A stretch of 64,000 nt of DNA, taken from NCBI GenBank assembly GCA_964465735.1, contig CAYXKT010000002.1, forward strand, positions 472 to 64,471, given 5' to 3'. The first letter of the stretch is position 1, and the number at the start of each line of letters is the position of its first letter. The notes under the pieces were generated by a model that saw nothing but the letters and a program-made list of their open reading frames with translations, had not been told where the DNA came from and did no database searches. The translations under genes were made by a program, and so were the position numbers. Of this stretch, positions 16,820 to 63,901 are shown in pieces. This DNA is from an uncultured bacterium. Its GTDB lineage: Bacteria > Auribacterota > Erginobacteria > Erginobacterales > Erginobacteraceae.

Positions 16820-16830
16820 AACTTCTCTCC

Positions 16831-43720: not shown

Positions 43721-44870
43721 TGTTCGCTCCCCCCAGGAGCCGCAGGTATTCCCCGGTCACCCGGGAACCGTAATCATCCCAGGAAAAGCCGCTGCGGACC
43801 TTCAGTTTCGCCCGCTCCCCCATCTCCCGCCGGAGATCCGGGTCCCGGTAGAGCCGGAGCAGCTTCTCCTGGATAGCTTCCACGTCCCGGACCGGGACGA
43901 TAAACCCCTCTTTCCCCTCCTCGATAAGGTCTTCCCCTCCGGTGTTGGGCGTGCAGATCAACGGCAACCCGCAAGCCATCGCCTGGAGTTGGACCATCGC
44001 CATCCCCTCTTCCAGGGAAGGCATAACAAAGACGCTGCCCCGCGAGAGATACCGATACAGTTCAGATCGGGGCCGGGAGCCGATGTACCTGTATGTCCCG
44101 GCGTACTCTCTCATCATCGGCTTGATCTCATCCGAGATCGTGCCGATGAAGAGAAGCTCGGCCTCCGGCAGCCGCAGTTCCTGGAAGGCCCGCAGGAGAT
44201 ACTGCACTCCCTTGCGCAGGCTCAGGCAGCCAGCGAAGACCACCCGGAAGACCGAATCCCGGCGGGGAACCTGCCGGAATTCCCCGAGGTCGACCCCGAG
44301 GAAGCACCGGATAATCTTCTCCGGAGGAACTCCCTGCCGGAGAAAGGAATCACGGGCGAAAGAACTGGGGACCGCGATATAATCGGTCTCTTCATACTCC
44401 CGCAGTTCTTTCTCCACCAGGGCCGGATGCGGCAGAACACCCCAGCAGCCGAGCCTCTCGTATTCTTCGGCCAAAATTTGCCTTTGGAAGAGGATATGGG
44501 AGCTGCCCCTCTCCAGGACGGTCTTCATCCCCCGGCGTTTCGCCTCCCGGATAGTCCGGAGGCCGAACGACGACCAACCGACCAGCAGATCTCCCCCCGC
44601 CAGCCTGCGGGATGCCTGGAGGTCGAACAGTTCACTGACCAGGCGAACGGGATCGGCCCGGGCGCTGACCGGCTTGGGGAGTTTCCGCCAGCCTCGGTAA
44701 ATCGCCTGGCAGAGAGGCAGGGATATCACCTTCCCGGGGGGGATTCCATATCCTCGGACCCGGGAAGCCGGGTAGCCGGTAATAATCCGCTCCAGACAGC
44801 CCCTCTGTTCCAGCTGCCGGGCCAGTTCAAAGGAATGGAACATCCCTCCCGTTGTCACGGTAACTTTCAT
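43713..44870 (-). CDS. GT4 glycosyltransferase
   Basis: FVMPSLEEGMAMVQLQAMACGLPLICT (EX7E). Start ATG 44868-44870 in an ATGA overlap with the upstream GT4 stop. The ORF-track start is 44954. Confidence 0.75.
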   Translation of the reverse strand: MKVTVTTGGMFHSFELARQLEQRGCLERIITGYPASRVRGYGIPPGKVISLPLCQAIYRGWRKLPKPVSARADPVRLVSELFDLQASRRLAGGDLLVGWSSFGLRTIREAKRRGMKTVLERGSSHILFQRQILAEEYERLGCWGVLPHPALVEKELREYEETDYIAVPSSFARDSFLRQGVPPEKIIRCFLGVDLGEFRQVPRRDSVFRVVFAGCLSLRKGVQYLLRAFQELRLPEAELLFIGTISDEIKPMMREYAGTYRYIGSRPRSELYRYLSRGSVFVMPSLEEGMAMVQLQAMACGLPLICTPNTGGEDLIEEGKEGFIVPVRDVEAIQEKLLRLYRDPDLRREMGERAKLKVRSGFSWDDYGSRVTGEYLRLLGGANNE

Positions 44871-46057
44871 AATTCGGGCAGCGCACGCAGGGCGCGCAAA
44901 ATCTCCTCCACCCCTTTTTGATAATTCCATCCAGAGACCCTCTCCTGGGCCCACACCCCCATCTCCTCCCGAAGTTCGGGAGACTGAGCAAGCCTTCGCA
45001 TCCGGTCGGCCAAGACCCCAACCTCTCCGACCGGACAGATGAAACCGTTCTCCCCTTCGACCACCAGGTCCCCGGCAGTACCGACCCCGTCGCTGACGAT
45101 AACCGGGAGGGAAAAATTCATCGCCTCGTTCAGGGCCCGGGGAGAAGGGTCGTACTCGGAGGGGAGAACGAAGACGTCCCCAGCGACATAGTATCGGGGC
45201 AGCTCAGTCTGGTTCCGGAACCCGGTGATGACAACATTGGTCAGGCGGCGGCGGGCGATCAGGTTCTCCAGGTCCCGGCGCTGCGCTCCTTCCCCAACGA
45301 AGACCAGGGAAGCTTCCGGCGGGTCACCCAGGAGGCGGTAGGCCTCGAGGAGATCAAGAGCGCGCTTGCGGGGATCGAGCTTCCCGGCGAAGAGAAAGAC
45401 CGGGAGACCGGCAGGGAGACCCAATGCGGTTTTGATCTCCTCCTTCCGCGGGGAGAGTTCCCGGGCCCGGGCCTGGAAATATTCATTATCCACCGCGGCC
45501 GGGTTCCAGTAAATCCTTCCCGGATCGGCCCCATAGGCAAGGTAGTAGTCGGCGTTTTTTTCGCACTCGCTCATAACCGCCGACGCCCGTCGGAAGAGAG
45601 GGGTAAGCACCGCCTTTTTTAAGACCCGGAGGGGGGCGGGGCGGCGGGGCCGGGAGACGACATTGCCCCCGATAAAGACCGGGATCCGGAATACCCCGGC
45701 CGCCAGGAAGGCCAGCCAGGCGGTCAGGTAATTGTAGCCCCAGACGAAGACGGCGTCGTAGCCTCCGGAGACAAGCGCGGGGACGATTCCCGGGTTGCAG
45801 AACCTTCCCAGGAGGGGAACCGGCCCCGAATAGAGACCAGCGAGAAACCGGTGGCGGTACCCTTCGAGCAGGGGGAGATCCCATTTGATATCCATCCGGA
45901 AGGTTCGGTCATACGCCGGTTTTTTTGCTCCGCCCTCCCAGCAATAATAGACCGTCAACTCGATCCCGGGATGCCGTTCCATCTCCTGGTAGAGACGGTA
46001 GTAGTACTGGATGGGATGGGTGACCAGGACCGCCAGACGGTATTTTTGTTTCATCAT
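44867..46057 (-). CDS. GT4 glycosyltransferase
   Basis: 396 aa. ...VLPSEYDPSPRALNEAMNFSLPVIVSDGVG (EX7E region). Confidence 0.75.
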   Translation of the reverse strand: MMKQKYRLAVLVTHPIQYYYRLYQEMERHPGIELTVYYCWEGGAKKPAYDRTFRMDIKWDLPLLEGYRHRFLAGLYSGPVPLLGRFCNPGIVPALVSGGYDAVFVWGYNYLTAWLAFLAAGVFRIPVFIGGNVVSRPRRPAPLRVLKKAVLTPLFRRASAVMSECEKNADYYLAYGADPGRIYWNPAAVDNEYFQARARELSPRKEEIKTALGLPAGLPVFLFAGKLDPRKRALDLLEAYRLLGDPPEASLVFVGEGAQRRDLENLIARRRLTNVVITGFRNQTELPRYYVAGDVFVLPSEYDPSPRALNEAMNFSLPVIVSDGVGTAGDLVVEGENGFICPVGEVGVLADRMRRLAQSPELREEMGVWAQERVSGWNYQKGVEEILRALRALPEL

Positions 46058-47715: not shown

Positions 47716-49194
47716 TCACCGCCCGGGGAAAATCCGGCCCGCCGCCAGGGACAGCAGGACCGTCAAAAGAAGGGCATTGGCGGGGATGGCGAAGTTGAAG
47801 TTAAGCGCACTCTGGAGAAGCAGACCCAGAACCCCGGCGGAACAGCCGGCGACCAGCCCTCGTCCAGCTATCGGCCATCCCCCCGGACGTTTCCGCGGGT
47901 GCCCCGGGTAAGTACTGTCCGGTTTCCAGAACAAAACCGAACCAAAGAATACCAGGAAGAACCCGGTCAGGCCCACCAATCCCCAGGTCCCCATCTCCGC
48001 CGCAACCTGGAGGTAATCGTTCTCGGCGTGGGTAAACGGTTTGCGGCGATCAAAGGACTTGTAATAGGGATATAACTTCTCGAATCCCCCCAGACCGATC
48101 CCCAGGAGCGGGAAATCCCCGTAGATCCGGATGGTATCCCGCCAGATGTCCCGCCGGTACTCCACCTCCTTCCCCTTTCCTCCGATCGTCTCAAAACGAT
48201 GGACCAGGTCGGCGGTCCCGAAGTAGGCCAAGCCCAGGGCGATCAGGACCAGAGAGACAACGAAGATCATCAGGGACTGCTTCCGGTCGATCAGCCGGAA
48301 GCGGCGGGAGATCAAGATCAAATATACAAAGGCGAGAAGACCGGCCAGTATCCCGCTCCGGGAATAGGAGAGAAAGAGGGAAACCGCCATCACCAGGGCC
48401 ATAAAGCCGAGCAGGAGACGCCGGGGTTCGGACCGGACCATCCGGTCCCGAAAAAGCTCCCCGGCCGGCCGGGGCCGACGGCTCAGGAGCAGGCCCAGGG
48501 CGAGGGGGATGACCATTATGATATAGCCGGCAAAATGGTTGCGGTTGACGAAGGGACCGAAGGGATTCCCGAAGCGGATCGGGCGGAGCCAGTAAATCAT
48601 ACCCTGCCAGGAGTACTTCTGGAGAATCCCGATCACCGAGACGGCAAAACCGGTAGCGACAACCGCGGTCAGCAGCCGGGCGGTGAATCCCATCCAGTTC
48701 CCCTCCGCCGGCCGGTAGCCTTTCAGGGTGTAAAAGATCGCTCCGTAGGCCGCCAGCCTGACCAGCTCCCCGGCGGTCCGGGAAGGGTAAAGGGAGAATA
48801 CCGTCCAGGAACCGGAGGTGACCCGCCCGGTCAAAAGCCAGAACCGGGCGGTCCGGGGACTGATCGCGGAGACCAGGGTGACCGGAAGCGGGATCAGCTG
48901 GACCAGCGGGCCGAGGAGAAACAGAATTCCGAACCCGCAGAGCAGATAATCGGCGACCGGGCGGCACGCCGTTGGCGAAAGAGCCCCCGAAAGAGAAGGA
49001 ATTCGGACGAGCAGATGCCGGCGGTAACGTTCGGTCGCGGCAATCAGGAAGCAGCCCGCGGACAGGATAATCCAGGCCCAGGTCTCGACCGCCCCGAAGG
49101 CCAGGGGGGAGAAGACCACCAGGAAGACGGCTCCCCACTCGACAATCCGCTCGCACCGGCGGATCTCCTTCGGAATTGTTAAACGCTCATCCAT
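47716..49194 (-). CDS. O-antigen ligase family (Wzy_C domain) membrane protein
   Basis: Polytopic membrane protein. Large periplasmic loop carrying FLSYSRSGILAGLLAF (the SRSG motif typical of the WaaL/O-antigen-ligase family). I chose the start at the ATG of about 49194 (MDERLT...) to avoid overlap with the upstream GT4. The ORF-track start is 49305. Confidence 0.55.
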   Translation of the reverse strand: MDERLTIPKEIRRCERIVEWGAVFLVVFSPLAFGAVETWAWIILSAGCFLIAATERYRRHLLVRIPSLSGALSPTACRPVADYLLCGFGILFLLGPLVQLIPLPVTLVSAISPRTARFWLLTGRVTSGSWTVFSLYPSRTAGELVRLAAYGAIFYTLKGYRPAEGNWMGFTARLLTAVVATGFAVSVIGILQKYSWQGMIYWLRPIRFGNPFGPFVNRNHFAGYIIMVIPLALGLLLSRRPRPAGELFRDRMVRSEPRRLLLGFMALVMAVSLFLSYSRSGILAGLLAFVYLILISRRFRLIDRKQSLMIFVVSLVLIALGLAYFGTADLVHRFETIGGKGKEVEYRRDIWRDTIRIYGDFPLLGIGLGGFEKLYPYYKSFDRRKPFTHAENDYLQVAAEMGTWGLVGLTGFFLVFFGSVLFWKPDSTYPGHPRKRPGGWPIAGRGLVAGCSAGVLGLLLQSALNFNFAIPANALLLTVLLSLAAGRIFPGR

Positions 49195-49231
49195 ATTCTC
49201 GGGTTTTCGCGCCGCGGAAGGGGGATCGACC

Positions 49232-50359
49232 TCAGGGGAGCCCGAACTCCGCCAGGAGCCCGGCGACTTTTTCCCGGAAGGCTTTTCTCCCGAAGTACCG
49301 GTCAACCCGATCGTGGAGCTCGGCCGGGTCCGGAGCGGTCTCGGTCAATAACCGCCGCAACCCCACCTCGAGTTCTTTCGGACTCTCCGGATCGACCAGG
49401 ATGCCCAGTTCCCCTCCCCGCAGGGCGTCCGCTGCCGCGTCCCGGTTCCCGCCCAGGCACCGCTTTCCGCATCCCATCGCCTCCAGGAAAACAATCCCGA
49501 ACCCTTCCCGGAGACTGGGCATCGCGAAACCGTCGGCCATCCGGTAATGATCGGGCAGTTCTTCGTCGGAAATATACCCGGTTAGGATCACCCTCCCCTC
49601 CAGCCCCAGCTCACGGACTCTCCGTTCGACGTTGGGGCGATCGTCTCCCTCCCCTACGATTAAAAAGCGCAGTCCCGGAAAATCCGGAAGCAGACGGGGC
49701 AGGATCTCAATGACTCGGGAGTATCCCTTGTCCAGCCGGGAGACCACCAGGCGACAGACGCTGATCAACACCCTGTCTTTAGGATCAATCCCATAGCGCT
49801 GCCGCAGCCCGGCCGGGGCCGGTCCGGGCGAGAACCGTTCCCCGTCAAATGTGACCGGGATCACCCGGAACCTTTCTTCCGGGATACCGATCCCGGCCTC
49901 CATCTTTCCCCGGGTAAAATTGCTGATCGGCAGAATCATATCCACCCGGCCCAGCGCCCGGCGGACCCGGCCCCGGGGCAGGTCCCAGACCTCAACCCCG
50001 TAGGCGCTGACCGCCGCCGGGATCGAGAGAGTTCTCTTCAGCCAGGCTGCCGCCGGAGCAAAGTGGGGATGGGCGGAGATGACCAGCGCCGGTCTTTCCC
50101 GCCGGGCGGCCCGCAGCAGCCGGGCCGCGAAGATCGGGGTCCGGACTCGCTCGGGCATATCCCCCGAGGCGGAGATCCCGACGCTCTCCCCGTAGCGCTC
50201 CTCCAGCTCTCCCGGCCGGTCGGACTTGCTCAACAGGCGGATCCGGCCGGGCCCGAGAACGGCCAGGGCCGCCTCCGTCAGCTCCGCCGAGTAATTCTGG
50301 ATACCCCCCACCCGGGACAACAGTTCCGGCACCCAGATATGGAGTACCCCGCTGTTCAT
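49232..50359 (-). CDS. GT4 glycosyltransferase (first gene of the long minus-strand operon)
   Basis: 375 aa. ...MPSLREGFGIVFLEAMGCGKRCL (EX7E). Confidence 0.8.
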   Translation of the reverse strand: MNSGVLHIWVPELLSRVGGIQNYSAELTEAALAVLGPGRIRLLSKSDRPGELEERYGESVGISASGDMPERVRTPIFAARLLRAARRERPALVISAHPHFAPAAAWLKRTLSIPAAVSAYGVEVWDLPRGRVRRALGRVDMILPISNFTRGKMEAGIGIPEERFRVIPVTFDGERFSPGPAPAGLRQRYGIDPKDRVLISVCRLVVSRLDKGYSRVIEILPRLLPDFPGLRFLIVGEGDDRPNVERRVRELGLEGRVILTGYISDEELPDHYRMADGFAMPSLREGFGIVFLEAMGCGKRCLGGNRDAAADALRGGELGILVDPESPKELEVGLRRLLTETAPDPAELHDRVDRYFGRKAFREKVAGLLAEFGLP

Positions 50360-50615: not shown

Positions 50616-52037
50616 TTAGTAGCCCGTGGCTCCGGTGACGATCACCGCGGCCGACTCATTGGGCGCGAGGGTATCGGTACCGACATTCCGGATAATCCAC
50701 TGGTCGGGCGAACGGAAGACCGTCAGGTCGACAACTCCGTCCCCGTCAAAATCTCCCACCACCGGGACGTCGCCGCTATTGCCCCAGACTGCGGTATCAT
50801 AGCCGCCGACCCCGTCGCGCCGGATCCACCAGAACCTGTTGTCGGCCGGCCGGTAGGCGCCAAGGCAAGAATACCCCGAGACATAGGCGCCCGGGACCGG
50901 GATATCGCCGCTCAGACCCCAGGCCCGGCTGCCGGGCACGCCGTTGACGAACCAGCGCCAGGTGCCGTAATCATCCGTGTTGATGACGGCGATGTCGGTC
51001 GTCCCGTCGCCGGTGTAGTCGCCCGGAACCGGGATCACACCGTCATAACCGTAGAGGATTGAGGTAATGTTCTTGACGTACCAGTAACCGTTGGAGGGCC
51101 GCCAGACAGCCAGGTCGGTCGTTCCGTCGCCGTCGTAATCGCCCGGCACCGGAACGTCGCCGGCAATACCCCAGACTTCGCCATCGATGATGGCTCCGCC
51201 GCCCACGCTCTGGGCAAACCATTCTCCGGTACCCCGGTCGAAGTAACCCAGGTCGGCTCTGCCGTCACCGTCATAGTCGCCGGGGGCCGGGACATCGTAC
51301 TCACCACCGCCGAAGGTCTCGGTGCCGATCCCTTCCAGCTGCCAATCGCCGCTGGATTGGTTGTAAAAGGCGGCATCGGTCATCCCGTCTCCACTGTAGT
51401 CGTCACTGGCTTTGACCAGATAAATCGGGGAAGGCGCGGGCGCCGGGGGTGCCGGCGGGGCCACGGTGGTAACATTGGTGATCGCCACATCGTCGATCAC
51501 GACATTGTCGGCATCGACCTTCAAGTACTCGATCTCCACCTGCTGGGAGGAACTGGCGTTGAGGGCCATAGTAATGATTCCGCCGCCGAGGCTGTGAGGC
51601 CCGGGCAGCCAGGAAAGAACGGACCAGTCGGCGCCGTTATATTCCCGGACCTGGATCGCGCTGCTCGGGTTGGCGCCAATGGCCTGGAGGTAGAAGCTCA
51701 GGTCGCTGTCGCCCGGGACGCCGTCCAGAGTGTACTCCTCGGTAATGATCCGGGAGCGGGCGGTCCGGCCCAGCTGGATACTCGGTACACCAGACAACGG
51801 ACCACCATATAACATATCAGCGTCCGAGTTCCGGTTGCAATTGATGAATTCCCAGCCGTCGGGGCGGACCCCGATCTGGAAGTTGTCGAAGCCCTCATTG
51901 ATCTGGGCCGTGGCCGACAGGCTGAGACAGACTGACACCACAATCATTACCGCCAATACCATTATTCCACGCTTCATACTAACCCCCTTCAGGTAGGGTT
52001 GTGTCCCGTTGCGGGGACTTGGTAATATGAAATACAC
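50616..52037 (-). CDS. Secreted protein: N-terminal unassigned domain of about 135 aa plus FG-GAP/VCBS-like repeats, C-terminal ...VTGATGY
   Basis: 473 aa with a signal peptide. N-domain INEGFDNFQIGVRPDGWEFINCNRNSD..., homologous to four copies in the giant protein. Repeats [60 protein letters not shown]. Confidence 0.7.
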   Translation of the reverse strand: MYFILPSPRNGTQPYLKGVSMKRGIMVLAVMIVVSVCLSLSATAQINEGFDNFQIGVRPDGWEFINCNRNSDADMLYGGPLSGVPSIQLGRTARSRIITEEYTLDGVPGDSDLSFYLQAIGANPSSAIQVREYNGADWSVLSWLPGPHSLGGGIITMALNASSSQQVEIEYLKVDADNVVIDDVAITNVTTVAPPAPPAPAPSPIYLVKASDDYSGDGMTDAAFYNQSSGDWQLEGIGTETFGGGEYDVPAPGDYDGDGRADLGYFDRGTGEWFAQSVGGGAIIDGEVWGIAGDVPVPGDYDGDGTTDLAVWRPSNGYWYVKNITSILYGYDGVIPVPGDYTGDGTTDIAVINTDDYGTWRWFVNGVPGSRAWGLSGDIPVPGAYVSGYSCLGAYRPADNRFWWIRRDGVGGYDTAVWGNSGDVPVVGDFDGDGVVDLTVFRSPDQWIIRNVGTDTLAPNESAAVIVTGATGY

Positions 52038-52526: not shown

Positions 52527-53900
52527 TTAGTATCCCGGAGCCCCGGTGACGATCACGTCATTGAAGAGATCGGCGGATAAAGTAACTTCGAAGCCGGAGG
52601 TCGGGCCATCCGGTCCGGTCCGCCCCAGCCACCGGTCCGGCGACCGGAATACGGCCGGGTAAACCACCCCGTCCCCGTTAAAGTCGCCCACCACCGGGAC
52701 GTCACCGGTCAGACCCCACAGTGCGGTACCATAGCCGCCGACGCCGTCGCGCCGGATCCACCAAAACCTGTTGTCGGCGGGCCGGTAGGCGCCCAAGTAG
52801 GTATGCCCGTCAGCAAAGTAAACACCCGGGACCGGGATATCGCCGCTCAGACCCCAGGCCCGGCTGCCGGGCACGCCGTTGACGAACCAGCGCCAGGTGC
52901 CGTAATCATCCGTGTTGATGACGGCGATGTCGGTCGTCCCGTCGCCGGTGTAGTCGCCCGGAACCGGGATCACACCGTCATAACCGTAGAGGATTGAGGT
53001 AATGTTCTTGACGTACCAGTAACCGTTGGAGGGCCGCCAGACAGCCAGGTCGGTCGTTCCGTCGCCGTCGTAATCGCCCGGCACCGGAACGTCGCCGGCA
53101 ATACCCCAGACTTCGCCATCGATGATGGAGTGGCTGCCCGGTTTCTGGGCGAACCACTGCCCGGTACCCCGGTCGAAGTAACCCAGGTCGGTCCAGCCGT
53201 TGCCGTTATAGTCGCCGGGCGCCGGGACGTCGTAGTCGCCGCCGCCAAAGGTTATTTTGCCGAACCCGTCAATCCGCCAGTCTCCTTTGGCGGTGTTGTA
53301 AACCGCGATATCGGAAGTCCCGTCTCCAGTGTAGTCGTCACTGGCTTTTACAAGATAAAACGGAGAAGGGGCCGGCGCCGGGGGCGCCGGCGGGGGCGCG
53401 GTGTCCACATTGGTGATCACCACATCGTCGATCACAACGTGACCGTCTCCACCAGCCTTCAAATATTCAATCTCCACCTGCTGGGAGGAGCTGGCGTTGA
53501 GGACCATAGTAATGGTTTCGCCGCTGTTGTTGTGAGGACCTGGCAGCCAGGTCAGCACAGACCAGGCACCACCGACAAACTCGCGGACCTGGATGGCGCT
53601 GATCGGGTTGGGGGTGATCGCCTGGAGCCAAAAACTCAACTGACTGGCACCGGTCAGGGTGAACTTCTCGGTCAAGATCCGGGAGCGAGTGGTCCGGCCC
53701 AGCTGGATACTCGGTACACCAGACAACGGACCACCATATAACATATCAGCGTCCGAGTTCCGGTTACAGTTGAAAAAACACCAGCGCGCCGGCCTGACCC
53801 CGATCTGGAAAGAATCGAATCCTTCATCGATCTGGGCCAGGGCCGGCAACCCCGCACAGAAAACAAGCGCCAGGGCCAATACCAATAAATCACACTTCAT
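52527..53900 (-). CDS. Secreted paralog of 50616..52037 (N-domain plus FG-GAP-like repeats, C-terminal ...VTGAPGY)
   Basis: 457 aa with a signal peptide. Same architecture as the neighbour. Contains a 304-bp block that is 100% identical at the DNA level to the neighbouring paralog. Confidence 0.7.
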   Translation of the reverse strand: MKCDLLVLALALVFCAGLPALAQIDEGFDSFQIGVRPARWCFFNCNRNSDADMLYGGPLSGVPSIQLGRTTRSRILTEKFTLTGASQLSFWLQAITPNPISAIQVREFVGGAWSVLTWLPGPHNNSGETITMVLNASSSQQVEIEYLKAGGDGHVVIDDVVITNVDTAPPPAPPAPAPSPFYLVKASDDYTGDGTSDIAVYNTAKGDWRIDGFGKITFGGGDYDVPAPGDYNGNGWTDLGYFDRGTGQWFAQKPGSHSIIDGEVWGIAGDVPVPGDYDGDGTTDLAVWRPSNGYWYVKNITSILYGYDGVIPVPGDYTGDGTTDIAVINTDDYGTWRWFVNGVPGSRAWGLSGDIPVPGVYFADGHTYLGAYRPADNRFWWIRRDGVGGYGTALWGLTGDVPVVGDFNGDGVVYPAVFRSPDRWLGRTGPDGPTSGFEVTLSADLFNDVIVTGAPGY

Positions 53901-55352: not shown

Positions 55353-56057
55353 ATGAAGATCCACGTCGGCTGCGGAGATTCCCCGATTTCGGGGTGGCGG
55401 AATTTCGACAACTCGATCAGCCTCCGGCTGGCCGGGATCCCTCTCCTGCCCCGGCTCCTCCGCCGGTGCGGAATCCTCAACCCCCGCCAGTACGCCTTTA
55501 TCGAGTTTGCCCGGTTACACCGGATCGAGTACGGCGACGGGGTCAAGGGGCTCCCGGTCCCCGACTGCTCCGCCGAGGCTCTCTACAGCTGCCATATGAT
55601 CGAGCACCTCAGCCGGGCCGACGCCGGACGTTTCCTGGAGGAAGCGAAGAGGGTCTTAATCCCCGGGGGAGTCATCCGGCTGGCGGTCCCCGATCTCCGG
55701 AGACTGGCCGGCCGCTACCTGGAGACCGGCGATGCCGACGGTTTTATCGCCGCCACCTACCTGGGCCGAGAGAACGACGGATCCGTGGCCGGGAGGATGG
55801 CAACGCTGATCGCCGGGCCGCGGCTCCACGGGTGGATGTACGATGAAAGATCGTTGGGCCGACTTTTGCGGGACCACGGATTTTCCGAGGTCGTCGCGGT
55901 CCCGCCGGGCGAGACGGGGATCCGGGAACCAGGAGAGTTGGACCTGAGAGAGAAAGAAGATGAGAGCGTCTATGTTGAGGCGGTAAAACCGGCCGGGGAA
56001 TCGGAAGCCCAAATCGCCTCCAACCGCCCGGTCGGGCCGGTAGAACCGGCTCAATAA
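55353..56057 (+). CDS. SAM-dependent methyltransferase (Methyltransf_11/23-like)
   Basis: 234 aa. [42 protein letters not shown]. Its 3' end overlaps the giant gene convergently by 7 nt. Confidence 0.65.
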
Positions 56058-59000
56058 GCAGTCGCCCCGGTGACGAAGGAGTCGGTGGACTGGGCGGTGA
56101 AATCAACGTAGTAGTACGGCCCGAAGGAAGACAGGATATACCAGCGATTCTCGCCCGGCCGGAAGACGGTCGGATCAGCCAGACCGTCCCCGTCGAAGTC
56201 TCCCACTACCGGGATATCTCCCCGCCCGGGAAGTCCCCAGCGGAACGACTCGGTATAGCTCCCGTCCAGTTTCCGGATAAACCAGTGTCCGGAGGTCGGG
56301 CGATATACCGCCAGCTCGGTGGCCCCGTCACCGGTATAGTCCATCGGCATTGCCAGGTCACCCTCCAGGTACCACCTCCGGGAACCGACCCCCCGGACGA
56401 ACCAATCTCCGGTCGACGGGCGGAGCATCGTGATGTCGGTCGTCCCATCCCCATTGTAATCTCCCGGTACCGGAATATCGCCCTCCCATCCCCAGTGAGC
56501 CACGGTCAGGTTCCGGATCCACCAGCGGTTGGTCGAGGACCTAAAGACGGCCAGTTCGGCGGTCCCATCCCCGGTATAATCCCCTGGGACCGGCAGATCC
56601 CCCCATTCCCCCCACTGCTCTTCGTCCAGTAAAACTCCCCCGGTCAGGCTCAGGACATACCACTTCCCGGAGAAACGGTCGAAGTAGCCGACGTCGGCCG
56701 TCCCGTCCCCGTCGTAGTCGCCGGGCACCGGAATATCACCCTCTCCCCCGCCCCAGACCAGTCCTGAAGTCACCCCCCGGATATCCCATTCCCCGCTGGC
56801 TGGGTCGTAGACCGCGGTATCGCTCGCCCCGTCCCCGTTATAATCGTCCCAATCCACCACCAGGTGGGCCGGGGTCAACCGGACCTCCGGGGTTGGGCTC
56901 GGGGTAGGCGTCGGCGTCGGGGTCCGGTAACCTTCGGGGGTCTGGCTTGGAGCGACGGTCGGTGTCGGACTCAAATACCCGGCCGGAGTCGGGCTTGGCG
57001 AAGCGGTCGGGGAAGGAGTCGCGCTGGGCGCCGGCGTCGGGGTGGTCAGGTATCCGACCTTCTCCAGCCGGGAGATGAAGATATCCTCCGCGCCCCCACC
57101 GAAGACGGACTGGAAAGCGTTCTCGACCGGGAAGTCAGTCGAAACAGTATCCCCGACCAGGTAGAACCTCCGCGAGCCGTCGAGGGCCGCGCCCAAGCTG
57201 GATTCCGTTCCGCTCCCTCCCAGGTAGGTGGAATAAGCCAGCGCATCCCCGACGGGATAGAGACTGGCCGCGAAGGCGTCCCGGTTGCCCCCCCCGTAAA
57301 CGGACTGGTAAGGGCGATAGAGCGGGAAATCGGTCGAGGTGGTCCAGCCGGCCAGGTAAACGTATCCGGAGCCATCGACCGCGATCCCTCGTCCGCGCTC
57401 CTCTCCGCTCCCTCCCAGATAGGTCGAATAGACCAGGGCATCCCCGGCGGCGGCGAGCCGGGCAACGAATACGTCCCCATAACTTGTCCCGCCACTCAAG
57501 ACCGACTGCAGGGCGTCCCGGGTGGGGAAGTCGGCGGAGAGGGTGTTACCGACTATCAGCGCCTCCCCGGTGGCGAGCAGCGCGATATCCTCCGCTCCAT
57601 CCTTACCGGCGCCACCGAGATATGTCGCATAGAGCGGTTCCGAACCGTCGGCAGCGAACCGAACCACGAACGCGTCGGCCTGCCCACCGCCAAAAGCGGC
57701 CTGGAAGGAGGACGCGGTGGGAAAGTCCTCGGACTCGGTCCGCCCGGTCAGGTAAGCCGAACCGGACCCGTCGACCGCGATCGCTTCCGCGTAATCGGCG
57801 GCGGCGCCGCCGAGGAAAGTCGAATAGACCAGGCCGGAGCCGTCACCGGACATCTTGCTGACGAAAATATCCCAGAACGAAGTCCCGGCGTGGGCCGGCT
57901 GCCAGGAATTCAGGGTCGGGAAATCCGCCGACCCGGTGCAGCCGGCCAGGTAGATGTCCCCTTCCCCGTCGACCGCGATACCCCGGACGGAGTCAGTTCC
58001 GGAACCGCCCAGATAGGTGGAGAAGACAAGGGTATCCCCGGAGGAAGATAGCTTGCTGACAAAGGCGTCGTAATCCCCGCCTGCTCGCCCGGCCTGGTAG
58101 GCCGCCGCGGTCGGAAAGTCTTCCGAAGATGTGTAACCGGCCACCAGGGCGTTGCCGTCCCCGTCAAGAGCAATATCCCACCCGACGTCTTCCCCCGAAC
58201 CGCCCAGATAGGTGGAGTAGAGCAAATTCTGCCCGTTTGAGGAGAACCTGGTAACCACTGTATCCCAGGAGCTGGAATAGGCGGGCTGGAGAGCGGAGGC
58301 GGTGGGGAAATCGGCCGAGGTGGTCACCCCGGCCAGGTAAGCCTCTCCCCCGGAGTTAACCGCGATGGCGAAACCCCGATCCCTCCCCTCCTCCCCCAGG
58401 TAGGTCGAGTAGTCGAGGACCAGACGATACATATAGTTATCCGGGGTCGGGGTCGGCGAGGGAGCCGGGGTCGGGGTGTCCGTCGGCGGAGGCGAGACCG
58501 TCGGGGTTGCCGACGGCGTTGGGGTTGCCGACGGCGTCGGGGTAATTGAAGGGGTCGGGGTCATCGAGGCGGTCGGGATTGCCGAAGGCGTCGGGGTCAC
58601 CGTCGAGGTCGGCGTGGCGGATGGCGTCGGCGTTACCGAGGGTGTCGGCACCAGGGAAGGCGTTGGCGTAATGGACGATGTCGGCGCCGGTGACGGTGTC
58701 GGCGTCACCGTGAGCGTCGGGGTTGCCGACGGTGTCGGGGTAATCGAGGGCGTCGGGGTGATCGACGGCGTTGGGGAAATTGATGGCGTCGGTGTAATTG
58801 ACGGTGTCGGTGTCACGCTCGGGGTCGGAGTTGGCGTGACCGAGGGCGACGGCGTCACCGTCGCCGTCGGCGTCACACTCGGGGTCGGCGTTACTGAAGG
58901 CGTCGGAGTAACCGACGGTGTCGGCACCACGGAAGGCGTCGGCGTAATGGATGATGTCGGCGCCGGTGACGGTGTCGGCGTCACCGAAGGAGTCGGGGTC

Positions 59001-62000
59001 ACCGTCGGCGTCACCGTGAGGGTCGGGGTCACCGTCGCCGTCGGGGTAATCGAGGGCGTCGGGGTGATCGACGGCGTCGGGGAAATTGATGGCGTCGGTG
59101 TAATTGACGGTGTCGGCGTGATTGATGGCGTCGGTGAGGGCGTCGGAGTTATCGACGGCGTGGGCGTAATTGAGGGTGTCGGCGGCGCGGTGGGCGTCGG
59201 AGTCACCGAAGGCGTCGGCGTCACCGTCGCCGTCGGCGTCACGCTCGGGGTCGGCGTCAGTGTCGGCGTCGGACTCGGCGTCGGCGTCGGCGTGATCAGG
59301 CACTTGACCAGGACATCGTCCAGGGCCAGGTCGCCGAGGCTCTTCTGATAGGTGAACTGGACCTGGCTGCTCGAGGGGTTGAGAACCAGGCCAGTGAAGA
59401 CCGTCCCGGTCGCGGGGATGGGGAGAAGATCGGTCACGGCGGCCCAGCCGACGGTGGCGGCGTACTCCTCGACCAGGAGACTGCTCAAGGAGTCGGTCCC
59501 CTGCCCCTTGACCCAGAACTGGAGCCACTCCCCGGGCAGGAACTCCGCCGTCCGGATGTAGTAACCGTCGGTGTCGAGCTTGAGCGAGGGCGAGAGATGG
59601 CCGTAGTCCCCGGAGGTGGTATAGACGTCCCCGGCCGCCACCCCGGAGAAGTTCCAGCCCGCCGGGATATCCCAGAGCGGGGCGGTGAACCCGTCAAACC
59701 CCTCGTCCAGCCGGGTGCAGATCGCCGGTGTCGGCGTAGCCGTCGGCTCTGCCGTAGGAGTCGGGGTCGCAGTGGCACTGGGCGCAATCGAGGGAGTCGA
59801 GGTCGCAGTCGGGGCTACGGTCGGTGTCGGAGTTCGCGTCGGGGCCACCGTCGGGGTCGCTGTCGGCGGAACGGTCGGCGGTGGAGTCTTGACCGGGGTA
59901 AGAGTCGGGGCCGGAGATGGCGTGGTCAGGCAGCTGACTAAAACATCATCAAAAGCAAGATCTCCCGCGGACTTATTATAAGTAAAGCGCAATCGTGTAG
60001 TGGAAGTGAGCAGATTAAAAGCTCCCAGGGTAGTCCCGGTTGTCGGGAGCGAACTGATATCGGTAACCGTACTCCAGCTGTCAATCGAGTAGTACTCTTC
60101 TACCAAAAGATGACTGGATGAGTCGGTACCCTGGCCTTTAACCCAGAACTGGAGCCAGTTTCCTTCGGCCAAAGCTGCCGTCTCGATAATATCCCCGGTA
60201 TTGTCCAGTTTGATCGACGGGGAAAGATGTCCAAAACTCCCCACCGCGGTATAGGTATCGGAGTTCAGGTTACAGCCGGTAAAGGTCCAGCCGGACGGCC
60301 GGGTCCCGGTATTAAAACCGTCAAACCCTTCGTCCAGCCGGGTACAGATCTCCGGGGTCGGGGTCGGGGTGACCACCCGGGGAGTGGGCGTAACCGTCGG
60401 GGTCGGGGTCGGGGTGATCACCCGGGGAGTGGGCGTAACCGTCGGGGTCGGAGATGGGAAGTCGGCCGGGAAGTTGAAGCGGGCGGCAAAGGCGTCGTAA
60501 TCTCCGGACCGGGAGGACTGGTAGGCGTTGAGGACCGGGAAGTTGGAGGATTTGGTATAACCGCCGATCGCGATATCGGGGGAATCGTCCGCCAGCGCCC
60601 GGCCCCGGTCGACTCCCGAACCGCCCAGGTAGCTGGAATACTCCAGGGCCGAACCGGCGGGGTTGAACCGGGCCAGATAAGCGTCCCAGTCACCCCCGGA
60701 AGTGGACTGGTAGGCGTTGACCACCGGGAAGTCGGTAGACTTCGTGGCCCCGACCACGGAAACCCGGCCGTCGGTCACTCGCAGGGCGTGGCATTCCTCC
60801 AGGCCGCTCCCCCCGAGATAGGTGGAGTAACCAAGAGTGGAACCGTCGGGGGCCAACCGGGCAACAAAGGTGTCACTGGTGCCGGAGAGGCTCCCCTGAT
60901 AAGCAGCGGAGGTGGGGAAGTTAGCCGAGAAGGTATCTCCCGCCAGGTAAACATTCCCCCCGGAATCAAGGCCGACCCCGCTGGCGGAATCGGCGTCGTT
61001 GCCGCCGAGATAGGTGGAGAAGACCAGGGAAGTCCCCCCGGAGGAAAACCGGGCAACAAAGGCGTCATAGCCACCGGCCATCGCCGGCTGGTAGGCAGAC
61101 ACAGTGGGAAAATCTCCAGAGTAAGTCAGACCGGCCAGATAGATTTCACCGCTGGAAACCGTGACCGCCAACCCCTGGTCTTCATCCGACCCCCCAAAAT
61201 AGGTGGAATAAAGCAGGGATTGTCCGTCCGCGGCAAAACGGGCAACAAAAGCGTCGTAATCGCCCCCGGGCGTCCCTCCGTGCGCGGACTGATAGGCACC
61301 GACGACCGGGAAATCGCCGGAATTGGTGTACCCGGCCAGATAGGGGGTGTCGTTTTCGACGAAGATGCCGTAGCCACGGTCATTCTCATTCCCCCCCAGA
61401 TAGGTGGAGTAGAGAAGATCGGTGCCCCCGGAAGAGAACTTGGCGAGAAAGGCATCGCTGGAACCGGACCGAGACGACTGGTAGGCGTTGACAGCAGGGA
61501 AATTATAGGAAAATGTGGTCCCGATTATGTAGGCCTGGCCGGAGGAGTCGACCGCCAGAGCATTGACATAATCGGATGAAGATCCTCCCAGGTAGGTGGA
61601 GTAACTCAGGCTCTGCCCATCGGAGGAGAACTTGGCCAGGAAAACATCGTAATTACCGGCGTTGCCGGATTGATAGGCGTTGGCGGACGGAAAATTGCTC
61701 GACCGGGTATAGCCGGTCAGGTAGATCGAACCATCAACGATCTCAATCCCCCGGGTATAGTCCTTCCCGGTTCCGCCGAGATAAGTGGAATACTCCAGGG
61801 CCAGGTTAACCGGGGTCGGGGTCGGTCCGGACGGGGTCAGGGTGGGGACCGGGGTCAAGGTAGCAGTCGGCGGCGGGGTCGGGGTGGCGGTCGGCGGCGG
61901 GGTCAGGGGGAGCGATGGAGTCGGGGTCGGGGTTTTGTAGTCCCCCGGGGTCACCGTCGCCGTCGGCGGCACGCTGGAGGACGGCGACGGTGTCGGAGAT

Positions 62001-63901
62001 TTGTAATCTACCGGGGTCGGCGTGGTCAGGGAAGGGTTGCCCCGGATGATGATGTCGTCGAGAGCGATGTTGCCCTTCTCTTTATTCAAAGTAAACCGGA
62101 TCCGGTCGGTGGGGTTGTAGAGATTGATCGGACCCACCGTAACCCCCTGCTTGGTATCGGGAAGATAGGTAAACTCGCCCAGCGGATACCACTGGTCGTT
62201 ATAGTGGTCCTCAACCAGCAGGGAAGTGGTGGTATCGGTGCCGGCCCCCCGCATCCAGAACTGGAGCGAGGTGGCGTCATAAAGGACCTCGGTGGTGATC
62301 TGGGCCCCGTTGGTATCGAGCTTGATCGAGGGAGGCGACTGACCGCAGTAATCGGGGTTGGAATAAGTATCGCTGTTAAGGTTGCAATAAAGGAATGTCC
62401 AGCCGGCTGGTCGGACGCCCGCGGCAAATCCGGTAAAATCTTCCTCGACCACAACCTCGTGCGCGGTGACGTGAAAGGTCTTGGTCACGGGTTTGTGAGT
62501 AATCCCAGGATAGTAGAGGTCGTCGTATTTGATCGGCGGGACCGCCGAGAGGGGGGCAAAGATATGGTCGTCGAAGACGTGGCCGGCGGTAAAGGTCTGG
62601 AACGAGGTATAAGTCTGGCCGACATTGGTGGTGATGGTCCGGTTATCGAGGAGAACGTTGGGCATTATCCAGTCGTAGGGGTAGCTGCGGGGGGTAGTCG
62701 AATTGGTGTTGTCGTTCCCCTCCCGGTCCATCGGGATGTAGTTATTGTAGTTGAGGAAGGTCGAGAAGACGGCCAGGCAGGGTTCACTGGCCGGGGAGCG
62801 GGAAAAGCAGTTCAAATCACCGGCCAGGACCGCGTAATGGTTCTGCAGATCAAACTCAGTCTGCATATAATCCTTGAGCTGGTAAGCCTGGTCCTCCCGG
62901 ATCAGCCGGTCCGAGGTGGTATTGCCGGCCTTGAGATGAACGGAGACGATCTGGAGGTCCCGGTCGCCGGGGATATCGACCACCGCCCAGGCAAAATTCC
63001 TCCCCAGCGTCTCGTGGCCGACATCCTCCCAGGTCCCGGCGGTCAGGATCGACCATCGGCTGATGATCCCGTTGGCGGCGCCGGCGGACTCGATATAGTA
63101 ATCGAAATCACTCCCGAAGGCGGTATCCACCCATTCCCGGACCCCGGAGTAGGTGGACTGGACGCTGAACTCCTGGACGCTGGTAATATCCGGTCCCAGG
63201 CCCTGGAAGATCCGGGCCGCCGGATCTCCGTAACGGTACTTGAAGGCCATAATGTTAGTGGTACAGACGGTCAGGGACTCATAGTGGGAGATCGGGGTCG
63301 GCGGGGGCGTCGGGGACTTGTAGCCAACCGGGGTCGGAGTGGTGACACCGGCGGTCGGGGTCGGAACCGGGGTTGAGGTCGGGATCGGGGTCGGGGTCTT
63401 GAAAAGGGAGGTAATCAGGACATCATCAATACCCAGATTGCCGCTCCGTTTGGCGTAAGTAAATTTCAGCTGGCTGGTCGAGGGATTGAGGGCGAGGTCG
63501 CCGATCGTCGTCCCGGAGGTGGGGAGATAACTGACCTGAGTCAGGGTGTGCCAGGTACTGAAATACTCTTCGACCAGGAGGCTGCTGGTGATGTCCGTCC
63601 CCTGGCCCTTGATCCAGAATCGGAGCCAGTCCGGGTCGGAGAAGCTGGAGGTGGTGACGGCGTCGCCGGTGGCGTCAAGCTTGATCGAGGGGGAGGCGGC
63701 GCCGTAATCTCCGGCCATAATATAGGTATCGGCATCCTGGTTGCAACCCGTGAACGTCCAGCCGGCCGGTCGGGTCCCGGTATCGAAACCGTCAAACCCC
63801 TCCTCAATCAGGGCACCCCGGGAAGAAGAGATAACCGCGAAAGAAGCCAACAAGGCAACGGAGGCAAGAAAGACTCGAAAAAGACGCTTGGAGATCTTCA
63901 T
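56051..63901 (-). CDS. Giant secreted multidomain surface protein (2616 aa): 4x unassigned N-domain, EEP-like domain, 2x SBBP-type propeller repeat blocks, Pro/Thr/Ser linkers, C-terminal FG-GAP-like repeats ending ...VTGATAY
   Basis: Signal peptide [29 protein letters not shown]-like region at about 62500-63290 ([13 protein letters not shown]...VSVHLKAG...GDLNCF...[10 protein letters not shown]). SBBP-like repeats ([24 protein letters not shown]) at about 60100-61800 and 56730-58410. PT linkers, the largest at 58437-59330. FG-GAP-like repeats at 56054-56620. Confidence 0.85.
58437..59330. repeat. Low-complexity tandem-repeat DNA encoding a (T/S)PTP(S/T)(V/I/A) linker of about 300 aa
   Basis: 6-, 9- and 15-bp periodic GTCGGGGT / GACGGCGTCGG repeats. 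On the minus strand they read [17 protein letters not shown].... On the plus strand they produce the spurious [13 protein letters not shown]. Confidence 0.8.
60364..60447. repeat. 42-bp perfect tandem duplication within a PT linker of the giant gene
   Basis: GGGGTGA(C/T)CACCCGGGGAGTGGGCGTAACCGTCGGGGTCGG x2. Encodes [11 protein letters not shown](I/V)T twice. Confidence 0.7.

Follow-up and report, generated by a model that had tools for sequence, protein, structure and literature searches.

The 2616-aa protein described here is probably a modular hydrolase that is exported by the Sec route and acts outside the cell or at its surface; it comes from an uncultured bacterium of Candidatus Auribacterota (PVC group), close to Ca. 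Erginobacter. Its gene occupies 12.3% of the analysed stretch of 64,000 nucleotides, which is called the window below. One catalytic module of the EEP (endonuclease/exonuclease/phosphatase) type is bracketed by two jelly-roll domains, ND1 and ND2, the latter fused to it without a linker, and behind this cassette Pro/Thr-rich linkers string together two SBBP propellers, two further jelly-roll domains (ND3 and ND4) and a C-terminal FG-GAP domain. How might such a protein work? In the mechanism we propose, the non-catalytic modules may bind polymeric or particulate material, or the envelope or exopolysaccharide of the cell itself, and would hold the EEP module at a distance from the cell. There it may cleave phosphodiester bonds of an extracellular substrate, which would lead to nutrient release or to matrix remodelling. 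Secretion, surface tethering, the binding functions, the catalytic activity and the substrate are what we infer for this protein.

If this reading is right, we have here a candidate for a phosphodiesterase that works outside the cells of an uncultured anaerobic phylum, for which DNA and other necromass are a predicted part of the diet, and it would help to account for the access of such cells to polymeric sources of phosphorus and carbon. The design as such is common, and the protein is a lineage-specific variant of it rather than a new and strange system. Current ideas are not overturned by it, as multidomain secreted EEP enzymes and large modular PVC exoenzymes are already known. Two by-products came with the analysis: a jelly-roll family outside Pfam and NCBIfam, by which secreted hydrolases of Auribacterota and other PVC genomes can be recognised, and a well-populated, uncharacterised EEP subfamily.

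Organization and integrity of the gene

A single frame runs from ATG to stop on the minus strand at 56051-63901 (stop codon at 56051-56053 included), uninterrupted over 7.85 kb. This frame had been proposed in the first-pass annotation together with its domain inventory and their N-to-C order; the ORF list and the translation confirm the former, and the module map agrees with the latter. All modules are on the minus strand. The protein begins with a putative Sec-type signal peptide read from the sequence (residues 1-28; 63818-63901), which has no lipobox, no Cys being present at the cleavage region; comparable N-termini, basic and then hydrophobic, are found in its orthologues and paralogues. 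ND1 follows (residues 29-166; 63404-63817; N-domain HMM E=1.4e-68), and then linker 1, delimited by a composition scan (residues 167-204; 63290-63403). The EEP catalytic module (residues 205-482) spans 62456-63289, so that its previous placement at 62500-63290 was accurate, and ND2 comes directly behind it (residues 483-622; 62036-62455; E=2.1e-59). Linker 2 (residues 623-698; 61808-62035), with a 24-nt imperfect repeat at 61850-61933, leads to SBBP block 1 (residues 699-1143; 60473-61807), after which come linker 3 (residues 1144-1183; 60353-60472; a 45-nt repeat in 2.2 copies with 98% matches), ND3 with cysteines 1186 and 1324 near its ends (residues 1184-1325; 59927-60352), linker 4 (residues 1326-1393; 59723-59926) and ND4 (residues 1394-1535; 59297-59722; E=4.9e-59). 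The long linker 5 (residues 1536-1822, 287 aa; 58436-59296) is an imperfect 18-nt repeat corresponding to six residues of TPTPS[VI]-like sequence, for which TRF gives 44.5 copies with 67% matches, and its DNA falls in the internal repeat families D1 and D2. SBBP block 2 (residues 1823-2283; 57053-58435), linker 6 (residues 2284-2340; 56882-57052) and the C-terminal FG-GAP/VCBS-type domain of six repeats (residues 2341-2616; 56054-56881) complete the protein. The Pro/Thr-rich linkers alone make up 22% of it, and together with the non-catalytic modules they account for about 90% of the residues.

The two SBBP blocks exist as annotated before, but the span given to each extended some 320-370 nt too far towards low coordinates: that of block 1 intruded on the Pro/Thr-rich linker and ND3, and that of block 2 on the linker and the first FG-GAP repeats. 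A Pfam check, which had been suggested for these modules, was significant for all of PF06739, PF13517 and PF01839. PF06739 matches the full-length protein in 8 stretches (171 bits, E=3.4e-51), and motif dissection resolves seven YSTYLGG-type repeats of 63-67 aa in each block, which is consistent with a 7-bladed beta-propeller per block. Blocks 1 and 2 are 46% identical. The best NCBIfam match of the whole protein is NF047494, the LipL53 family of Leptospira (96 bits, E=1.8e-27), which stays far below the cutoff of 400. LipL53 shares the SBBP-repeat beta-propeller and is surface-exposed; the present protein differs in having no lipobox and in carrying the propeller as one module among fifteen. 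In the isolated C-terminus, both FG-GAP_3 (PF13517, 50.7 bits, E=2.9e-13) and FG-GAP (PF01839, 47.9 bits, E=1.1e-12) are above the cutoff, and the six repeats carry D-x-[DNT]-G-D-G motifs, i.e. D[YF][DNT]GDG, of the D-x-D-x-D-G type of calcium-binding loop.

Could such a repeat-rich frame be an assembly artefact, by chimerism or by a collapsed repeat, or a decaying pseudogene, instead of one functional gene? The orthologue of Ca. Erginobacter occultus is indeed split over two contigs (L004 and L020) inside near-identical ND4-like copies, and the number of N-domain copies varies among genomes (four in the window, at least seven in E. occultus and five in L007, another MAG), so that the exact number of copies and the linker length given here are provisional. 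At least three further copies in L004 share 86-94% identity with ND4. However, the frame is unbroken, the catalytic residues are intact and three independent assemblies agree fully in the order of the domains: the E. occultus orthologue is collinear, with 88% identity over residues 28-1535 and 85% over residues 1822-2616, and L007 has a complete ORF of 2599 aa, its domains in the same order, on a contig of 375 kb. Internal DNA repeats of the window gene are only 60-80% identical, except for the 45-nt repeat of 2.2 copies, and thus offer no obvious substrate for collapse. Since two assemblies independent of the window show a collinear architecture, an assembly chimera, which the first-pass annotation had named as a possible refutation, is very unlikely, and an artefact or pseudogene as a whole is highly improbable. 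Long plus-strand ORFs inside the gene (e.g. 61670-63376 and 60227-61579) were taken for antisense shadow ORFs, such as a GC-rich and repetitive gene gives, and not for genes. Neither the promoter nor the terminator scans, run at the two ends of the gene, were informative, with only 99 nt upstream in the window, and an Rfam scan of the entire window returned no RNA family.

The EEP module and its candidate substrates

In a Pfam scan of the full-length protein the EEP module was not detected. It is to be noted that both this module and the N-domain were missed in full-length Pfam and NCBIfam scans, and the modules were therefore scanned separately. The excised EEP module reaches 24.4 bits (E=2.8e-5) against PF03372, 0.1 bit short of the gathering cutoff of 24.5. 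Among its 62 clear homologues (best E=1e-53), 59 bear a precomputed PF03372 annotation, as do 68 of 69 multidomain relatives. It has the EEP alpha/beta sandwich fold, and its AF2 model is of pLDDT 92 and pTM 0.91. Loss of the catalytic His, Asp or Glu residues had been named beforehand as what would disprove the assignment; nine positions, N216, E244, H322, D362, N364, D410, D444, D461 and H469, are invariant across 43 family sequences, again in the 69 multidomain relatives, and intact here; the assignment is not disproved, and the EEP module is real. H322 aligns to the HL.A motif and D362/N364 to the GD.N motif of Bacillus cereus sphingomyelinase. Against an active enzyme count two near-invariant sites beside the catalytic His that differ, T468 (Q in the family) and L462 (S in the family). 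On balance, the residues argue for one apparently active, metal-dependent phosphodiesterase with a complete predicted active site. Compared with the L007 orthologue, the EEP module is the best-conserved part of the protein (77%, other modules 43-71%), which speaks for catalysis as the function under selection.

An EEP domain embedded in a giant adhesin-like scaffold had been considered unusual. This does not hold: an exhaustive profile search collects 631 clusters of the same subfamily, many of them multidomain, in proteins of up to 2314 aa. LTD is the commonest fusion partner (16 of 69 members), and further partners are Ig-like, He_PIG, PKD, PPC, MBG and cadherin-like domains. The nearest well-known design is that of ExeM of Shewanella oneidensis and Xds of Vibrio cholerae, in which a signal peptide is followed by LTD, an OB-fold (YhcR-like), EEP and a C-terminal anchor (PMC6085458). 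As in these nucleases, the present protein, supposedly Sec-exported, combines EEP with accessory domains, a Pro-rich stretch and a putative retaining C-terminal module (PMC6085458). Unlike them, it is three times longer and has N-domains, SBBP propellers and an FG-GAP domain in place of LTD, OB-fold, GlyGly-CTERM or a transmembrane anchor; Pfam scans of the full-length protein and of its modules gave neither LTD nor an OB-fold nucleic-acid-binding domain.

What would this enzyme cleave? Extracellular processing of nucleic acids or phospholipids, as had been suggested, would be plausible. By sequence profile, the nearest solved and curated relatives are sphingomyelinases and not nucleases. A PDB search with the single EEP sequence reaches bacterial sphingomyelinase C and beta-hemolysin at E=0.007, the family profile reaches them at 8.7e-10 to 1.5e-6, and the only other PDB sequence found by either is one uncharacterised EEP. 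The alignment to sphingomyelinase spans only the central catalytic motifs common to all EEPs. TIGR03395 (sphingomyelin phosphodiesterase) is weakly matched by 21 of the 43 family members (best E=3e-9), but the window EEP itself gives no match to it at E<=0.01. None of the 43 members matches an ExeM/NucH-type model of NCBIfam, and among the nuclease models a weak ExoIII match of one member (0.0074) is the sole hit at E<=0.01. Human neutral sphingomyelinase is among the best structural matches; the structural similarity to bacterial sphingomyelinase C is no better than that to TDP2, ExoIII and uncharacterised EEPs. For three stand-alone EEP homologues, located on long contigs, the genomic surroundings show no conserved neighbours and give no substrate hint. 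Literature searches found neither this protein nor the N-domain described, and no EEP of the subfamily that had been characterised.

DNA or RNA would be the first candidate, at somewhat less than an even chance, phospholipid or sphingolipid head groups a possible second, and other phosphodiesters (e.g. phosphoglycans) a less probable third. DNA is slightly favoured over lipid head groups on two grounds. First, LTD is the commonest partner in the subfamily and LTD plus EEP is the architecture of ExeM, a biochemically proven nuclease, the function of LTD itself being unresolved (PMC6085458). Second, MAGs of Ca. Erginobacter are predicted to catabolise DNA and to have nucleoside and nucleobase transporters (PMC9324843).

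The same matches allow an aggressive role, namely that EEP is a sphingomyelinase C or phospholipase C-like enzyme serving as a membrane-attacking surface weapon or a lipid scavenger against other cells, in line with the epibiotic or predatory lifestyle suggested for further PVC lineages that have giant proteins. In its favour are the PDB hits, the weak TIGR03395 matches in the family, the human neutral sphingomyelinase among the structural neighbours and the fact that giant surface proteins of related PVC phyla are read as predatory weapons (PMC12057145). The shared features, however, are the EEP fold and the central H...GD.N motifs; sphingomyelinase C and beta-hemolysin (B. cereus 2ddr, S. 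aureus beta-toxin 3i5v) are single-domain proteins of about 300 aa with identities of 14-19%. As the alignment is confined to motifs that all EEPs share, the window EEP lacks the TIGR03395 match, LTD dominates among the subfamily partners as in the nuclease ExeM, and Auribacterota are described as free-living fermenters (PMC9324843), we consider this role unlikely.

The idea that EEP is delivered into neighbour cells as part of a contact-dependent toxin (CDI, Rhs or T6SS effector), an effector role that the first-pass annotation had also raised, finds even less room. Pfam and NCBIfam scans gave no TPS, haemagglutinin-repeat, Rhs/YD, PAAR or pre-toxin domain, EEP is located near the N-terminus and not at a polymorphic C-terminal tip, its 77% conservation across distant orthologues is not that of a polymorphic toxin, and the genes directly downstream encode methyltransferases, with no immunity gene there. 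Such delivery is hardly to be believed.

The N-domain and its partners

The N-domain has a beta-jelly-roll fold of the galactose-binding-like or CBM type and resembles the cleaved-adhesin domains of gingipains as well as reelin, CBM and MAM domains. Its four copies match the family HMM at E=1e-58 to 1e-70 and are 43-57% identical to ND1; ND1 itself is 66% identical to ND1 of L007. ND2, which adjoins EEP, is 71% identical to ND2 of L007 and only 34-37% to the other L007 copies, and is thus, as judged from sequence, a position-specific variant. The junction of EEP and a following N-domain recurs in another protein (P0176), and the two domains also occur together in P0218.

None of the four copies matches any Pfam family, the copy scanned against NCBIfam has no match, and a sequence-profile search of PDB gave a chance nanobody match only. 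The signatures E-G-F...P-x-G-W near the N-terminus and DD[VI] near the C-terminus presumably resemble those of choice-of-anchor J (NF038128). That model is weakly matched by 2 of 13 N-domain sequences (E=3.3e-4), but by none of the four window copies. By sequence the N-domain would therefore be a family outside Pfam and NCBIfam, at best a distant sister of choice-of-anchor J. The gingipain/HagA polyproteins of Porphyromonas gingivalis likewise have several K/R domains of the 'cleaved adhesin' kind behind a catalytic one; they differ in that the catalytic domain is a cysteine protease and export is through the T9SS C-terminal domain, and Pfam and PDB sequence searches found no match between gingipain and the N-domain.

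Related loci were searched with an alignment of the four window copies. In other PVC genomes the N-domain is joined to S8 subtilases, a C1 (papain-type) protease and amidohydrolases, usually with a C-terminal FG-GAP domain. An initial impression that the domain is extremely rare (15 matches) had to be softened, as divergent copies in N-domain/FG-GAP proteins of about 450 aa are missed by the word-indexed search. Lineage specificity of the FG-GAP C-terminal domain was also considered and rejected: more than 5584 homologous domains exist in public data, it is a widespread partner of secreted enzymes across phyla, and only the tail motif is restricted. In the present protein it ends in the conserved tail ..VTGATAY. 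A tethering role for this domain is pure conjecture.

Long secreted multidomain proteins are a known concept in the same superphylum. Ca. Menyafoubacter, a relative of Auribacterota, has large extracellular catabolic proteins (PMC12057145), and these, like the giant surface proteins of Omnitrophota (bioRxiv 10.1101/2023.11.21.568195), combine catalytic, adhesin-like and disordered regions. They differ in being longer than 5000 aa and in carrying polysaccharide lyase, pectin-lyase-fold, Rhs or internalin domains (PMC12057145; bioRxiv 10.1101/2023.11.21.568195). A word search of the two texts found FG-GAP in neither, and neither SBBP nor a nuclease domain in the Omnitrophota preprint.

Neighbourhood and paralogues

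The gene lies next to a Wzx/Wzy exopolysaccharide locus, which includes GT4 glycosyltransferases, a Wzy-type protein, a flippase, a GNVR co-polymerase, a BBP2_2 porin and methyltransferases; the beta-barrel porin gene suggests a diderm envelope. At the edge of this locus or inside it are two paralogues on the minus strand. Paralogue 1 (457 aa; 52527-53900) has a signal peptide, a divergent N-domain (HMM E=8e-23) and the FG-GAP C-terminal domain (E=1.9e-65, also found by Pfam FG-GAP) with the tail ..VTGAPGY. Paralogue 2 (473 aa with GTG as start codon; 50616-52037; tail ..VTGATGY) is 75% identical to it. The FG-GAP domain is common to the giant protein and both paralogues (E=1e-65 and 1e-70).

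This location raises the possibility that the main role of the protein is structural, as an adhesin or a matrix component tied to the cell's own exopolysaccharide, and that EEP only remodels the matrix, e.g. by trimming matrix DNA or phosphodiester-linked glycans, and has no part in nutrient acquisition. The downstream synteny is kept in E. occultus, the great majority of residues are non-catalytic, and SBBP proteins such as LipL53 are annotated as surface lipoproteins. On the other hand, the EEP cassette is the best-conserved part, the N-domain/FG-GAP scaffold elsewhere carries proteases and amidohydrolases with no evident link to polysaccharide loci, and the downstream neighbours in L007 differ from those of the window. 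A mainly structural role thus appears rather doubtful, and a secreted hydrolase is preferred.

A more speculative extension of the hydrolase reading, to which we likewise give a low probability, is that the N-domain and the FG-GAP domain with its conserved tail (..VTGAxxY or ..D-x-P-V-T-R) act together as a display system peculiar to the lineage of Auribacterota and related PVC bacteria. It would tether varied secreted hydrolases to the cell's own Wzx/Wzy exopolysaccharide or envelope, with the tail as sorting or attachment signal. The cargo so far would be the EEP phosphodiesterase, S8 and C1 proteases and amidohydrolases, and the giant protein would be its most elaborate member. By analogy, such a system would be functionally like SLH, dockerin or T9SS C-terminal-domain anchoring.

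On the E. occultus contig L020 a single copy stands at the position of paralogue 2. In the window, an internal ATG about 20 codons downstream of the GTG is an alternative possible start of paralogue 2.

The reading frame and its modules

The giant secreted protein is encoded by a single unbroken reading frame on the minus strand, which runs from an ATG at 63901 to 56051 in the ORF list, translates into 2616 residues and takes up 12.3% of the window, in agreement with the 12% given in the first-pass annotation. When module borders are set from composition, HMMs and repeat motifs in the translation, a signal peptide (residues 1-28) is followed by the first of four N-domain copies (ND1, 29-166), a Pro/Thr-rich (PT) linker (167-204), an endonuclease/exonuclease/phosphatase (EEP) module (205-482), ND2 (483-622), a PT linker (623-698), SBBP block 1 (699-1143), a PT linker (1144-1183), ND3 (1184-1325), a PT linker (1326-1393), ND4 (1394-1535), a long PT linker (1536-1822), SBBP block 2 (1823-2283), a PT linker (2284-2340) and FG-GAP repeats (2341-2616). 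This order is identical to the one proposed earlier. The EEP coordinates given there are accurate; both SBBP blocks had been drawn about 320-370 nt too long at their low-coordinate ends. The SBBP (E=3.4e-51) and FG-GAP assignments are confirmed by Pfam. Each SBBP block consists of seven repeats of 63-67 aa, with 46% identity between the two blocks. In the C-terminal domain, six repeats bearing D-x-[DNT]-G-D-G loops were counted. PT linkers total 566 residues, or 22% of the protein.

The 3' end of the gene overlaps by 7 nt with that of a convergent methyltransferase gene (55353-56057, plus strand), and no convincing terminator was found between the two. Long plus-strand ORFs of 395-568 aa lie opposite the giant gene (56864-58051, 60227-61579 and 61670-63376). 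The most plausible view is that they are shadow ORFs arising opposite a repetitive, GC-rich gene, and their "match" to orthologous loci reflects DNA conservation alone.

The EEP module and its family

A full-length Pfam scan of the giant did not detect the EEP module, and the module in isolation scores 24.4 bits against PF03372, whose cutoff is 24.5. This borderline score appears to understate the case for it. A homology search retrieved 62 proteins, down to E=1e-53 and with 36-45% identity, 59 of which carry a precomputed PF03372 annotation. The classical EEP positions N216, E244, H322, D362, N364, D410, D444, D461 and H469 are invariant in a 43-sequence alignment and also across 69 multidomain relatives, and an AlphaFold2 model made with the same alignment reaches a pLDDT of 92.2 and a pTM of 0.91. 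The first-pass annotation had named a lack of the catalytic His/Asp/Glu residues as grounds for rejecting its EEP call; no such lack is seen. Fold and active site place the giant in the EEP superfamily.

How exceptional is such an enzyme within a large adhesin-like scaffold? The earlier view that it is unusual is not borne out. When 1.84 billion representatives were screened exhaustively with a profile, 3490 relatives came up (631 at E<=1e-30), the 150 best of which span 255-2314 aa, and in long members this EEP is joined to cadherin-like, LTD, Big_9, PKD, He_PIG, MBG, fn3 or BACON domains. Among the 69 multidomain members the most frequent partner is the lamin-tail domain (LTD), present in 16; Ig-like families and PPC come next. 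SBBP or FG-GAP motifs occur in none of 210 EEP-family proteins examined, and two proteins from outside the Auribacterota lineage have an N-domain. In P0176 a signal peptide is followed by EEP, an N-domain directly abutting it and a PT linker; in P0218 the N-domain is N-terminal and EEP lies close to the C-terminus. What is specific to the Auribacterota proteins is the particular set of companion domains.

Orthologues and the shared scaffold

In Ca. Erginobacter occultus the orthologue is divided between two contigs (L004 9899-17407 and L020 2-3010), with at least seven N-domain copies overall. L004 is collinear with residues 28-1535 of the giant at 88% identity and, past the equivalent of residue 1535, continues with at least three additional ND4-like copies (86-94% identical to ND4) up to the contig end; the start of L020 falls within an N-domain, and this contig covers residues 1822-2616 with 85% identity. 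N-domain copy number thus varies between close relatives. The public E. occultus assembly is broken inside the extra copies, and this gene is under-represented in public MAGs. In another MAG (L007), a complete ORF of 2599 aa on a 375-kb contig has the order SP-ND-EEP-ND-SBBP-ND-ND-ND-SBBP-FG-GAP. Module by module, identity to it is 77% for EEP, 71% for ND2, 66% for ND1, 63% for SBBP block 1, 62-65% for ND3 and ND4, 49% for the FG-GAP domain and 43-47% for SBBP block 2, and these values place the strongest constraint on the ND1-EEP-ND2 cassette. The architecture is conserved and the N-domain copy number variable. Could the reading frame instead be an assembly chimera? This is very unlikely, since the orthologue is collinear, the ORF in L007 is complete, and the internal DNA repeats of the gene within the window share just 60-80% identity. 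In the long linker an 18-nt unit recurs imperfectly, at 67% matches; the N-domain copy number in the window is taken from the assembly.

The other N-domain copies show 43-57% identity to ND1, and none of the four matches a Pfam model. A profile search yielded just 15 proteins, the majority of which lead from a signal peptide through an N-domain to a PT linker and are truncated near contig ends. In two of them, VSYTHL.. at the C-terminus of P0063 and MCIRD.. at the N-terminus of P0073 come from translated Nextera transposase adapter (CTGTCTCTTATACACATCT), which shows that public assemblies with fragments of this gene family contain adapter-derived contig ends. In a scan with one genome per species, the N-domain was also present in other "PVC group" MAGs, in the unclassified MAG MFD02416.bin.2.262, and in a few Verrucomicrobiota and Flavobacteriaceae. 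We therefore assign it to the adhesin/CBM/MAM-like jelly-roll class, as a distant member not yet filed as a family, and it is most likely a binding module.

Other hydrolases use the same parts. Elsewhere among PVC, Auribacterota and Verrucomicrobiota genomes, the catalytic part ahead of the N-domain is an S8 subtilase in L009 and L014, a C1 papain-type protease in L010 (Ca. Euphemobacter) and an amidohydrolase in L013 and L017, and PT linkers with an FG-GAP-type repeat domain close the protein in L009, L010, L013 and L017; L008 has seven consecutive N-domains before its FG-GAP domain. Directly downstream of the giant gene, two tandem minus-strand paralogues (52527-53900 and 50616-52037), 75% identical to each other, combine a signal peptide and a divergent N-domain with the giant's FG-GAP domain; they are flanked by Wzy/GT4 genes on one side and two methyltransferase genes on the other. 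In E. occultus the syntenic position is occupied by a single such gene (L020 5056-6519), and proteins of this kind, about 450 aa long, are met repeatedly in metagenomes. The FG-GAP domain itself has more than 5584 matches in many phyla and is regularly seen in fusion with secreted enzymes, among them subtilisins, trypsin-like proteases, M23, CHAP, CAP, GH5 and LTD proteins. The giant (56054-56080), its orthologue in E. occultus, the two paralogues and five N-domain/FG-GAP proteins from metagenomes share a C-terminal tail, ..[VI]VTGAxxY; among 120 generic FG-GAP matches it occurs in five, all with an N-domain, and is absent from the other 115. Eight other N-domain hosts end in ..D-x-P-[VAT]-[TA]-R, and the set with conserved tails includes L005, L006, L008-L011, L013, L017 and L020. 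The tail may supply the strand that closes a propeller, or it may act as a signal for sorting or anchoring. A lineage-specific system in which the N-domain and the tailed FG-GAP domain together display several hydrolases seems rather improbable to us.

Possible substrates and the genomic neighbourhood

The giant is real, well conserved and uncharacterised, and it fits none of the defining models of the sphingomyelinase C, ExeM/NucH, LipL53, choice-of-anchor J and polymorphic-toxin families. It carries an export signal, an intact and strongly conserved EEP active site and long PT spacers; its jelly-roll, propeller and FG-GAP modules are of kinds known to bind ligands in other proteins, and its non-catalytic modules are re-used with other hydrolases. 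It is probably an "enzyme on a stalk", either extracellular or retained at the surface, whose accessory modules would grip substrate-bearing material or the cell's own envelope or polysaccharide and whose EEP module would cut phosphodiester bonds. Its mode of action would match that of ExeM/Xds, secreted EEP enzymes that are likewise multidomain, and its design resembles gingipain/HagA polyproteins or CBM-decorated glycoside hydrolases; relatives of the Auribacterota are already known to have large extracellular catabolic proteins (PMC12057145). As to the substrate, we lean slightly towards nucleic acid, because LTD, the commonest partner in the subfamily, also occurs in ExeM, a proven nuclease (PMC6085458), and in large LTD-nuclease proteins of DNA-degrading Izemoplasmatales (PMC8289736), and because Ca. 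Erginobacter is predicted to catabolise DNA and import nucleosides (PMC9324843). A lipid head group is a serious rival, to which the sphingomyelinase-like sequence affinity points.

A phosphoglycan is a further possible substrate, in view of the CBM-like neighbouring domains and a polysaccharide locus. The neighbourhood seen here covers the 3' side of the giant gene, its 5' flank lying beyond the window, and contains a Wzx/Wzy-type exopolysaccharide locus from about 24 kb to 56 kb, with a BBP2_2 beta-barrel porin (24237-25430), a GNVR/AAA_31 co-polymerase (26436-28478), methyltransferases (28608-30340), GT4 glycosyltransferases (33177-34442, 36156-37319, 42668-46057 and 49232-50359), a carbamoyltransferase (34406-36151), a Polysacc_synt_3 flippase (41179-42594) and a Wzy_C protein (47716-49305). 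E. occultus shows synteny over the stretch that begins with the Wzy gene and reaches the giant gene. On the upstream side of the gene, L004 and L001 show a synteny that includes PriA, cytidine deaminase and hypothetical genes. Further upstream of the locus are FeoB and four PMT_2-family genes (GT-C, protein-O-mannosyltransferase/ArnT-like; 130-2361 and 14594-16951 on the minus strand, 6648-8774 and 21417-23474 on the plus strand), one with a C-terminal PA14 domain. With so many Pro/Thr linker residues in the giant, O-glycosylation of its linkers by these putative enzymes is conceivable. A methyltransferase (29576-30340) and a 598-aa protein without a Pfam match (30337-32133) have homologues of 52-70% identity at 17754-20290 of L007, directly downstream of the giant's orthologue there; the copies in the window lie about 24 kb from the giant gene.
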